Source of the DNA: Archangium sp.
Lineage (GTDB): Bacteria > Myxococcota > Myxococcia > Myxococcales > Myxococcaceae
Length of the DNA stretch: 39,880 bases
Assembly: GCA_031367385.1 (NCBI GenBank)
Contig: JANLPS010000161.1
Span: forward strand, 1 to 39,880
Direction of reading: 5' to 3'
The position numbers were made by a program, and so were the translations under genes. Position 1 is the first letter of the stretch, and each line of letters opens with the position of its first letter. Shown one piece after another: positions 1 through 5,950 of the stretch. Below the pieces are notes generated by a model. It saw only the letters and a program-made list of their open reading frames with translations, was not told the origin of the DNA and searched no databases.

Positions 1-11
1 GCTACACCCCA
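1..11 (-). tRNA. 5' fragment of a tRNA, probably tRNA-Gln (truncated by window edge)
   Basis: Minus strand reads TGGGGTGTAGC, i.e. a 7-nt acceptor arm starting with U1 followed by TAGC, 3 nt downstream of tRNA-Gly. A U1/GGGG start is typical of bacterial tRNA-Gln. The anticodon lies outside the window. Confidence 0.55.
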
Positions 12-14
12 ATG

Positions 15-87
15 AGCGGGCGGCGGGAGTCGAACCCGCGCGTGTCAGTTTGGAAGACTGATGCCTTTTCCGCTTGGCCACGCCCGC
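15..87 (-). tRNA. tRNA-Gly(TCC), CCA not encoded
   Basis: Cloverleaf with acceptor GCGGGCG/CGCCCGC plus U73, anticodon arm TCAGT-CTTCCAA-ACTGA and T-arm GCGGG-TTCGACT-CCCGC. It is followed by CAT, not CCA. Confidence 0.9.
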
Positions 88-95
88 ATGTGTTG

Positions 96-167
96 TACCG
101 CCGCAGGGACTCGAACCCTGACCTCTCCGTTTAAAAGACGGGTGCTCTGCCTTCGAGCTCCGACGGC
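96..167 (-). tRNA. tRNA-Lys(TTT), atypical (G8, G14), CCA not encoded
   Basis: Acceptor GCCGTCG/CGGCGGT plus A73, D-stem GCTC/GAGC, anticodon arm CCCGT-CTTTTAA-ACGGA and T-arm CAGGG-TTCGAGT-CCCTG. The conserved U8/A14 pair is replaced by G/G. Confidence 0.8.
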
Positions 168-242
168 AAGCCTCTGCGCACCGCAGCTCTCGTTTCTTCA
201 CCGTGTTCATGGTCGACCTCTGTTCAGCGTGGGACTTCGAGT

Positions 243-314
243 TGGCACGGAGGGAATCGAACCCTCAACCTCGCGCTGAAGAGGCGCTTGCTCTTCTTGT
301 TGGGCTACCGAGGC
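243..314 (-). pseudogene. Degenerate tRNA-Lys(CTT)-like pseudo-tRNA
   Basis: T-arm GAGGG-TTCGATT-CCCTC and anticodon arm (A)GCGC-CTCTTCA-GCGC(G) are present. The acceptor stem (GCCTCGG vs CCGTGCC) has mismatches and overlaps the T-stem, the D-loop lacks GG and position 37 is C. Confidence 0.65.
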
Positions 315-315
315 G

Positions 316-392
316 TGGCACGGCAGGAAGGAGTCGAACCTTCAGCGTCGGGTTTTGGAGGCCCGTGCCCTTTCCGATGGGGCTTCTGCCGT
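316..392 (-). tRNA. tRNA-Trp(CCA), CCA encoded, atypical (A8, C14)
   Basis: Acceptor ACGGCAG/CTGCCGT plus G73-CCA, D-stem GCCC/GGGC, anticodon loop CTCCAAA with a C31-A39 mismatch and T-arm GAAGG-TTCGACT-CCTTC. Confidence 0.88.
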
Positions 393-418
393 AGAAAATA
401 TTTGGGTTGAAATGCGGC

Positions 419-454
419 AAGAAAAGAGGCCGGGAGCTTTCGCCACCCGGCCTC
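419..454 (-). terminator. Intrinsic terminator / attenuator hairpin upstream of the tRNA array
   Basis: Minus strand GAGGCCGGG-TGGCGAAAGCT-CCCGGCCTC followed by TTTTCTT, a perfect 9-bp stem ending ~26 nt upstream of tRNA-Trp. Confidence 0.75.
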
Positions 455-481
455 CAAGAAGTCTCCACGTAGGAGAATCCT

Positions 482-517
482 CTAAGAGCTGGGGAGCTGG
501 CGACCGCATTGATTCAT
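482..517 (-). CDS. Putative attenuator leader peptide MNQCGRQLPSS (11 aa)
   Basis: ATG AAT CAA TGC GGT CGC CAG CTC CCC AGC TCT TAG. The stop lies 27 nt upstream of the terminator stem, and the 3' half of the ORF can pair with the terminator 5' arm and loop. The SD is weak. Confidence 0.45.
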   Translation of the reverse strand: MNQCGRQLPSS

Positions 518-1269
518 GGGGAAGTTGCTCAAAACGCAATCGGGAAACACGATGCCGAGTCCGGACCGAAAATCAGGGCGCGCGGCTTCCACCGTTTCTT
601 GATGCCACATCGCGCTGTATGCAATTGAAGCCATGGCGGGTGTCGCTCCGGGCAATGGAGACGCGGCCGCTTGGGATGTCTGACGAGGCTCGTGTCGAAC
701 TTCTCAAAAACGCAGAGCGACAACATGCTGAGCAGCCGCCACATGTTCAGGCTCGCGCCCATGTTGATGCCTTGCGACCAGCTTTGGAAACGCGGCGGGG
801 GCGGGGAGGGTCAGGCAGTCGAGAGACAGTGTCGGAAATCAACGCAAGCACGAGGTCCCTCAGCGAGCCTCACGGGCAGCAGCGACCGCCGTCAATGCCG
901 CATGCAGGTTCGACGGCAGCCCATACGTCCGGCCGAAGTCGAGGAGCTGATTCAAGCTGTGGCTAAACTCCCGCCCAATCTGCGCGGAATTGAGGGCGAT
1001 GAGTGCGAGGTTGGGTCCCGTGAAGTTCATCGCCTCCGAAAAATCACGAAGGGTCTCTTCCACTCGATTCGTCAGGAATTCCTCATTGGCGGAGCTGAGC
1101 CAGAAAACATCTGCTCAGAGCGAGGCCACTTCTGGCTCGTCTCGGACGTCGGGCCGCCAACAGCAGCTTCCGGACCATCCCCGTCACGCACAGCACGCCG
1201 TAGCCGGCGCTCGGCGTGAAACGGGTCAAAAGCCCGCGTCGCCACCGAACAGGCGTTAGAACGCAGGAG

Positions 1270-2352
1270 GTGCCGGAGCAGACCGCTGACGTTCAAGAAA
1301 TGCGAATTCGACTCGAGGGCCGTGTCGAGCGGCTCGAGCATGCACGCCACGAGCTCGAGGCACTTTCGTCATTGCTCGATGACCGGTGGCCTCGGCGCTT
1401 GCCATGGCAGGTCGAGCGTGTACGGCTGATCGCCGACCTCCCGGCCATCGACGAAGCCATGAGCGCCCTCCGAGCGCTGCCGCAAACCCACGCCCTGGCA
1501 CATTCAGTCGAGCAATCGCGTCGCACCCTCGAGCGCCTCGCGGGAGCCGCCTGGTCATCACTCGGCGACTCGCCCACGGGTCAATCACTCGACGCCTTGC
1601 TGCTCGGCCTGCTCGAACGCGCGCCCATCGACATCGGCTATTCGACTTCGGCCGCAGGGTGGCCGGTGGGGTTCACGATTCTCGCTGGCACCGCGGCGCT
1701 GGCCTTCAGTCAGACCTGGCCGGTCATCATCGGCTGCGGGCTCGCGGTGCTGGCGAGCCTGCTGGCCTGGTACTTCGCGCCCCGTCGAATCTGGGAGATG
1801 CGCTCGTCGAGCATCGTGATTCGCACGCCGAAGCTGCGCGAGCTGCCCTTCAGCGCGATCGAGCGCGTCGAGCAGCTCAACGGCACGGTCGTGGTGCACC
1901 ACACCGAAGAAGGCGTTCGCGTGCAGGAGTCACTCGAGTGCGACTCGCCAGCCGACCTGGCCGCGTTGCTCACCTTGCATCGCGCGCGCAAGGTGCCTCG
2001 AGCCGCCGACCGCCGTGAAGACGCGGTGGTCACCGCTGCGAGGTGGGGTGAGGTCGACGGAGCCATTCTGGCCTTCGCCCGAGGTGTGTTTTTCGTGAAT
2101 CAAAACAACTTATTGCGGGGCTTCGTCGTGCCCCCACGGCTGCTCTTACAAGAGCTCGCCTTGTTGACCGACGACGCGCTCGAGGCCCTCGGAGCGAGCC
2201 TCGACGCGGGCGAGTTCTGGCCCGCCGGGCAGTGCCGGGTCACCACCGGCCAAAGTTCAAACGAGCGAGTGCTCCACCTGGGCCAAGCCCGAGCCGTCAC
2301 CGCCCCGGTCACCGCCGAAGAGGCCGCACGGCTCGAGCGCTGGTTCGCGTAA
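1270..2352 (+). CDS. Hypothetical membrane protein (N-terminal helical region, two TM helices, PH-like C-terminal region)
   Basis: Long ORF with host-like codon usage and a hydrophobic hairpin (WPVGFTILAGTAALAF...LAVLASLLAWYF). Start is uncertain (1216, 1270 or 1300). Confidence 0.7.
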   Translation: MPEQTADVQEMRIRLEGRVERLEHARHELEALSSLLDDRWPRRLPWQVERVRLIADLPAIDEAMSALRALPQTHALAHSVEQSRRTLERLAGAAWSSLGDSPTGQSLDALLLGLLERAPIDIGYSTSAAGWPVGFTILAGTAALAFSQTWPVIIGCGLAVLASLLAWYFAPRRIWEMRSSSIVIRTPKLRELPFSAIERVEQLNGTVVVHHTEEGVRVQESLECDSPADLAALLTLHRARKVPRAADRREDAVVTAARWGEVDGAILAFARGVFFVNQNNLLRGFVVPPRLLLQELALLTDDALEALGASLDAGEFWPAGQCRVTTGQSSNERVLHLGQARAVTAPVTAEEAARLERWFA

Positions 2353-2365
2353 ATCCCCCAGCGGC

Positions 2366-5950
<3,585 letters not shown>

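Follow-up and report, generated by a model that had tools for sequence, protein, structure and literature searches.

Multivalent leader-peptide attenuators, such as those of thr, ilvGMEDA, trp and his, sense charging and control biosynthetic enzymes. T-boxes bind tRNA directly, without translation, and some have been reported before tRNA genes in Clostridia. In the whiB7/wblC system, a uORF overlaps the antiterminator, and full translation leads to termination while stalling leads to read-through (bioRxiv 10.1101/2023.06.02.543512). The M. smegmatis whiB7 uORF contains all amino acids but Cys, and its composition sets what is sensed (bioRxiv 10.1101/2023.06.02.543512). Six tRNA genes belong to the WblC regulon and are thus reached indirectly (PMC7157823). 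Long, mostly supernumerary and patchily distributed tRNA arrays are known as L-arrays, and myxobacterial arrays appear in the L-array supplement, for example a 12-gene array in A. gephyra (PMC8421152). In the Anabaena trn operon, the repressor TrcR acts at the level of initiation, and rtcB and rsgA are co-regulated (PMC10272220). Neither of these last two papers mentions attenuation or a leader, and PMC4758250 mentions no leader, attenuation or myxobacteria. Leader-peptide attenuation of tRNA genes was not found in the literature searched, the scope of which mostly excluded subscription journals and preprint supplements. How bacteria set individual tRNA levels is largely open (PMC8421152).

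The window analyzed here, a 39,880-nucleotide stretch from an Archangium sp. assembly of 7.97 Mb and 65% GC, starts with four tRNA genes on the minus strand, in an array that continues past the contig end. The relevant features, in transcription order and with the evidence for each, are the following.

660 to 685, minus strand: predicted ECF-type promoter, CGTCAG-N17-CGTC (YGTCAG-N17-CGTC), with the -35 element at 685-680 and the -10 element at 663-660 (motif)
644 to 649, minus strand: Shine-Dalgarno-like GGAGCG, its GGAG lying 11 nt upstream of the ATG at 634 (five sub-family relatives with similar spacing)
482 to 634, minus strand: putative leader ORF of 50 codons, with 19 of the 20 amino acids and no Lys (open frame, Shine-Dalgarno, relatives)
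478 to 503, minus strand: predicted antiterminator 5' strand, made of the last ~7 codons, the stop and a few bases beyond (pairs with 457-440 in nascent-RNA folds)
456 to 482, minus strand: predicted apical spacer hairpin, present in both states and including the 476-462 stem (folds; window z = -2.6)
419 to 454, minus strand: predicted intrinsic terminator, a hairpin with a GAAA loop ahead of a U tract, whose 5' arm and loop double as the antiterminator 3' strand (folds)
316 to 392, minus strand: tRNA-Trp(CCA), array gene 1 (ARAGORN, Rfam)
241 to 315, minus strand: tRNA-Lys(CTT), atypical, Rfam 29.5 bits (ARAGORN, Rfam)
95 to 167, minus strand: tRNA-Lys(TTT) (ARAGORN, Rfam)
14 to 87, minus strand: tRNA-Gly(TCC) (ARAGORN, Rfam)
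1 to 11, minus strand: 5' end of tRNA-Pro(CGG), the rest beyond the contig end (compared with the Pro tRNA of L450 and L461)

Contig C4 opens with the remainder of tRNA-Pro(CGG), followed by 10 more tRNAs. We infer that the two contigs abut, and the split tRNA-Pro together with the tRNAs on C4 gives an array of ~15 genes. Like an L-array, it is long, patchy in its lineage and mostly redundant, 11 of its ~15 tRNAs being duplicated elsewhere in the assembly with the same anticodon. For Ile(GAT), Asp(GTC), Ala(TGC) and Val(TAC), the array copies (contig C4, L544) are the only ones in the assembly, though housekeeping counterparts may have failed to assemble. In the spacer that separates the two Lys tRNAs (240-168, minus strand), a GAGG and an ATG begin a reading frame extending across the tRNAs that follow, likely by chance. 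A 378-aa ORF without a Pfam match (1216-2352, plus strand) is divergent from the array, and next after it comes smc (2366-5950, minus strand).

The original prediction for this locus was a ribosome-coupled attenuator with an 11-codon leader at 517-482. The frame from ATG 517 to TAG 482 does exist; its length does not hold, ATG 517 being codon 40 of the 50-codon ORF, and an internal ATG there is found in none of the six sub-family relatives. Five of these six have an ORF of 53 to 56 codons homologous to the window leader, and the sixth has one of 26 codons with the same end point. As in described leader attenuators, then, a short ORF with a ribosome-binding site precedes the terminator (634-482, with GGAG). 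This ORF has no Pfam match.

We asked how widely this arrangement occurs in Myxococcaceae. When 41 genomes were searched at the DNA level, G001 proved to have the terminator with tRNA-Trp, and G016 and G024 to have arrays; the leader and array of G024, used as query against 208 family genomes, matched at 30 loci. A shared Shine-Dalgarno context was found in 82 of the 208 genomes, at 179 places; most of the 150 places listed, together with named loci, yielded 147 distinct ORFs. G148 contributes to the results only through the tallies over the 208 genomes. Retaining those of 20-65 codons left 140 (7 dropped), and requiring the promoter core left 138 (2 dropped). Units were thus found mainly through the Shine-Dalgarno context or DNA likeness, and not through stop position or composition. 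A terminator is present in 131 of the 140 leader units (9 were scored as lacking one), and a tRNA array follows, or the end of the locus is reached, in 135 of 138, with 3 lacking an array. The Trp-first sub-family to which the window belongs occurs in 18 of the 208 genomes; many of its small arrays have no terminator or leader, by loss. Outside the family, a 401-genome sample of the phylum contained no Trp-first terminator unit or array match by a DNA search that detects close relatives only, and a match labelled Enterovirga (L558) held no unit. Search patterns based on the terminator alone were too loose and returned mostly Streptomyces and Collinsella terminators without arrays. Inspection by eye of housekeeping tRNA heads (10 motif-bearing ones in G000 and 17 tRNA-Lys loci of relatives) revealed no leader with terminator, and an apparent Lys-rich leader on contig C373 was the end of an upstream gene.

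Several variant units were also seen. The terminator is deleted, and the leader and spacer hairpin kept, in L004/L055, L346, L364, L368, L378, L342 and L397; terminator-less units include 22-codon Arg/Trp leaders ahead of Trp, Tyr or Arg tRNAs. In L545 (1201-1630) and L550 (2944-3400), composition-matched leaders run into the first tRNA without a terminator, and control there is possibly Rho-dependent or processing-based. L390 (G114; leader at 170, minus strand) has a leader-terminator unit followed by a protein gene and no tRNAs. The start of that gene presumably resembles HNH-type genes adjoining arrays, and a gene of similar kind comes after the Ala-Arg array of L009. L103 (Corallococcus), a natural mutant, has a frameshifted leader of 141 codons without the normal stop.

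The position of the leader stop is kept almost without exception. Across 136 units with 23 ORF lengths from 26 to 62 codons, the first stop lies 25-48 nt ahead of the terminator arm in 134, compared with 0 of 136 in each of the other frames. Together with the terminator count, this bears out the expectation that homologous myxobacterial arrays share a uORF and terminator/antiterminator layout. The Shine-Dalgarno sequence and the conserved frame suggest that the leader is translated. The peptides themselves have diverged beyond recognition and range from 20 to 62 codons, the leader middle has no conserved sequence across the family, and dN/dS is 0.58 (38 disjoint pairs), which indicates that the peptide sequence is weakly constrained. 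By these comparisons, the sequence of the leader is less well preserved than its frame and composition. An expected-stops figure for the leader frame was dropped as circular, the pairs having been chosen by equal length.

The RNA elements of the original prediction were recovered on refolding: the small hairpin at 476-462, the intrinsic terminator at 454-419, the complementarity of UCGCCA (503-498) to UGGCGA (445-440) and the first tRNA (tRNA-Trp, 392-316) are all present, and the long alternative hairpin forms in RNA folded without the terminator 3' arm. The terminator hairpin is predicted at -25.5 kcal/mol and is followed by a U-rich tail, although a simple terminator scan listed nothing at the locus, this hairpin included. 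A weak suhB match in Rfam (413-501, E 0.45) was rejected as reflecting the terminator hairpin. Across the family, when RNA ending at the terminator loop is folded, 83% of 136 units have at least 9 of 11 arm bases paired with the ORF end, compared with 32% for shuffled ends and 28% for upstream windows; by a looser measure, at least 5 bases pair in 131 of 131 units, a count that is not discriminating because controls pair easily. Cognate ORF-end/arm duplexes outperform swapped ones (p = 0.0003, 18 groups), the window ranking third and its closest relative, G001, last of the 18. Moreover, the two strands covary: of the 14 units with G as the arm base preceding GGCC, 12 carry C at ORF position -5, compared with 12 of the 111 units with A in the arm, and the covariation involves at least six changes on the tree. 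The spacer hairpin has z < -1.65 in 114 of 131 units despite their unrelated sequences. By folds, controls, swaps and covariation alike, the antiterminator is predicted to overlap the ORF end and to exclude the terminator.

At equilibrium, folding favors the terminator, by 7.4 kcal/mol in the window and by a median of 10.6; the switch must therefore be kinetic, that is, co-transcriptional. In a ribosome-footprint model, the arm is freed at a cost of ~15 kcal/mol while the ribosome is at least ~9-10 codons upstream of the stop and of 4-8 when it is near the stop, and the cost falls by more than 3 kcal in 110 of 131 units. The antiterminator is lost in this model when no more than about 5-8 codons separate the ribosome from the stop, and the sensing window would be about codons 2-41. 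An 11-codon ORF would therefore have almost no sensing window, about 1-3 codons remaining before the switch point. As ATG 517, though in frame, also has no Shine-Dalgarno sequence upstream and is missing from the relatives, we consider it extremely unlikely that the ORF starting there is the functional leader.

The promoter of the unit appears to lie upstream of the leader. As the original prediction implied, no promoter was seen by sequence between 418 and 393, and the promoter-like motif is at 685-660, from which transcription would start near 652. Of the 140 family leaders with 20-65 codons, 138 are preceded by its TCAGG core. That the motif is a promoter is supported by two kinds of unit: three short leaders of the sub-family, all with terminators, have their ATG 8-9 nt past CGTC, where the start site is expected, and in six other units the motif stands 10-14 nt ahead of the first tRNA with no leader or terminator between. 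The motif adjoins the first tRNA only where leader and terminator are both deleted. A promoter scan of window positions 1-2500 found no sigma-70 site.

These observations bear on whether the ORF could simply encode a small protein and end in a constitutive terminator, with leak or another promoter accounting for transcription of the array. Such a gene would fit a dN/dS below 1, the terminator as the equilibrium fold and the RNA data for the M. xanthus AM003 unit (L516). For this unit, the stretch is present as Logan contigs in 18 RNA runs, though contigs cannot show ends, and three unstranded raw-read runs of one study cover upstream DNA, leader and array flatly in both directions, with no step at promoter or terminator, a pattern that weighs neither for nor against attenuation. 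We nonetheless regard this explanation as decidedly improbable, because the unrecognizably diverged peptides keep their stop position and arm pairing, no sigma-70 site is at hand and the motif moves next to the first tRNA only with the loss of leader and terminator.

Read-through could also be set by a trans-acting factor, through an RNA-binding protein, Nus/boxA antitermination or T-box-like tRNA binding, with the ORF secondary. In line with this, terminator loops are conserved, and a word that we liken to boxA occurs by a strict pattern within 8 of 128 arrays; such words were seen in array spacers of L004, L031 and L002. Against it, Rfam returned tRNAs alone above threshold for window positions 1-5000, with no riboswitch match and, to E 5, no T-box (stem I specifier, T-box antiterminator bulge); the leader middle is not conserved; and the strict conservation of frame and stop would be left unexplained. 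We judge a trans-acting factor of this kind very unlikely.

If the ribosome is the sensor, the composition of the leader could reflect what is sensed. We compared leader and array content in 128 complete arrays, the 10 units with truncated or no array having been dropped from the 138, grouped into 17 peptide clusters and with the first 12 and last 5 codons excluded. The fraction of leader residues with a tRNA in their own array is 0.461, compared with 0.346 under permutation (17 clusters, p < 1e-4), and 0.358 compared with 0.219 in the 11 small-array clusters (p < 1e-4). The match extends to synonymous codons (0.644 compared with 0.544, p = 0.001); for example, GAA makes up 13 of 31 Glu codons where the Glu(TTC) tRNA is present and 9 of 53 where there is Glu(CTC) only. 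An amino acid is present in the leader in 103 of 108 cluster cells with the tRNA, compared with 107 of 198 without. In independent pairs, placed on a tree built without the leader middle and with Ser excluded, 125 comparisons go up, 53 down and 66 are tied, or 70% compared with 49 ± 4% for mismatched amino acids; pairs of different amino acids reuse rows, so that the sign-test p is overstated. Six held-out small units of the window's sub-family, which lie outside the earlier counts but were picked after inspection and in three cases have no terminator, rank 1 of 720 permutations, and three later small leaders give p = 0.16. At cluster level, Thr, Met and Arg show no enrichment, and Ala and Val are flat in the pair test. 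Cluster 1 leaders are Ser-rich, and the counted array has no Ser tRNA.

Individual units illustrate the match. In L332, His-Phe-Arg tRNAs follow a leader of 20 codons, of which three are for His, two for Phe and three for Arg; in L545, a 32-codon leader has 10 Ser and the array ends in four Ser tRNAs. The long, Archangium-type arrays of cluster 2 have no Cys, Glu or Ile tRNAs, and the same residues are absent from their leaders. Long-array leaders are broad, with at least 19 amino acids in 17 of 28, compared with 5% of proteome windows, and a mean of 18.5 amino acids, compared with 16.6 in nucleotide shuffles. In the window leader itself, 65% of codons have a tRNA in their own array and 35% do not, its 19 amino acids are within reach of nucleotide shuffles (p = 0.14), and it has no Lys codon though the array has two Lys tRNAs. 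The tRNAs missing from this array are probably recent losses, to judge from longer sub-family arrays. Leader codons thus match the supply of the operon at the level of the family, and only weakly for the window copy alone.

The covariation of leader content with array tRNAs, a feature absent from the original prediction, suggests that tRNA supply is sensed at the level of codons, rather than generic stalling by antibiotics alone. The same attenuator could instead sense nothing but a general loss of coupling, through antibiotics or ribosome damage, the composition match being a historical by-product. The near-complete, Lys-free window leader would suit such a sensor, as would the broad leaders kept by arrays with recent tRNA loss (clusters 1, 7 and 15) and the response of the Anabaena array to many antibiotics (PMC8421152). 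We think this unlikely, since the match holds in tree-independent pairs, at the synonymous level and in held-out units of unrelated sequence.

Taken together, these results make it likely that a ribosome-coupled transcription attenuator that samples decoding gates the spare tRNA operon, in a feedback on tRNA supply. An ECF-type promoter would start the transcript, and a ribosome would translate the 50-codon leader. A ribosome that keeps up with RNA polymerase to the last ~5-8 codons would cover the antiterminator strand and let the terminator form, and transcription would then stop about 26 nt ahead of tRNA-Trp. If the ribosome stalls upstream, because the cognate charged tRNA is short (cleaved, uncharged or unmodified) or an antibiotic is present, the ORF end would pair with the terminator 5' arm first, and the array would be transcribed. 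Small arrays would respond to their own codons, while in long arrays a nearly full set of amino acids would make the leader a broad sensor. Newly made tRNAs would relieve the stall and close a feedback loop. The core of the original prediction, in which a ribosome at the stop masks the antiterminator and early stalling allows read-through, finds good support in the comparative evidence; the leader it named was misidentified.

By its sequence-testable features, the unit would work like a whiB7-type or multivalent leader attenuator. Like whiB7/wblC, it has a uORF overlapping the antiterminator and the same termination logic (bioRxiv 10.1101/2023.06.02.543512). Whereas whiB7/wblC gates a transcription factor, tRNA genes here lie directly downstream, with no WhiB7-type regulator and its positive feedback, and paralogous myxobacterial leaders match their own arrays. 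It shares with amino-acid operon attenuators a Shine-Dalgarno-led leader rich in cognate codons and an antiterminator and terminator that exclude each other, but its output is tRNA itself, with up to ~19 specificities and longer leaders (about 50 codons), and the units lead tRNA arrays in place of biosynthesis or synthetase genes. As in a T-box, tRNA status would control a terminator; unlike a T-box, control would be translation-based. The Anabaena trn operon is likewise a long, mostly supernumerary array, and rtcB and rsgA share the promoter motif here; control there is at initiation, by TrcR, whereas attenuation is predicted here (PMC10272220). The unit is thus outside the amino-acid operon, whiB7 and T-box families, and, within the literature searched, its tRNA target and feedback logic have no precedent.

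The promoter motif also occurs beyond the arrays. Of the 39 tRNA or tmRNA unit heads in G000, 15 have it no more than 300 nt away, where 0.5% would be expected and the reversed motif is near none of the 39; at least one of these 15 occurrences falls inside an upstream gene. In the form YGTCAG-N15-17-CGTM, it precedes genes for RtcB, ArgRS, an RF-1-domain protein and RsgA (L536-L543), as well as a metallophosphoesterase, Uma2, an MFS transporter and YqeY, eight genes chosen by eye from 47 motif-plus-ORF rows that are mostly chance-like. A hitherto undescribed translation-repair regulon under an ECF-type promoter is possible on this evidence, and the gene set resembles both the Anabaena TrcR regulon (PMC10272220) and the Streptomyces WblC regulon (PMC7157823). 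The motif recalls the ECF41 promoter, TGTCACA-n16-CGTC, in its -10 CGTC, a -35 element beginning TGTCA and similar spacing (PMC3426412). It differs in that the -35 element goes on with G (YGTCAG; family consensus YGTCAGG, not TGTCACA) and in that its targets are tRNA and translation-repair genes (PMC3426412). As for a cognate ECF sigma factor, none of 65 sigma region-4 matches has a YGTCAG-type motif upstream, and one has a TGTCAC-type motif.

More tentatively, and with somewhat less than even confidence, we suggest that a myxobacterium carries several codon-specific tRNA-supply loops, each tRNA block with its own leader rewritten as tRNAs are gained and lost. These loops would stand under the undescribed ECF translation-repair regulon (tRNAs, RtcB, ArgRS, a release-factor-like protein and RsgA) and would replace tRNAs cut by anticodon nucleases of prey, kin or phage. 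Units are present in the cultured strains M. xanthus AM003, A. gephyra SDU49, M. eversor, P. fallax and H. versicolor, which makes direct testing with codon-swap reporters possible. If the proposed attenuator is borne out, it would provide a simple cis mechanism that ties the transcription of tRNA genes to the decoding of their own codons, and would give a purpose to accessory tRNA arrays. The composition of a leader may then predict which tRNAs the cell expects to lose.
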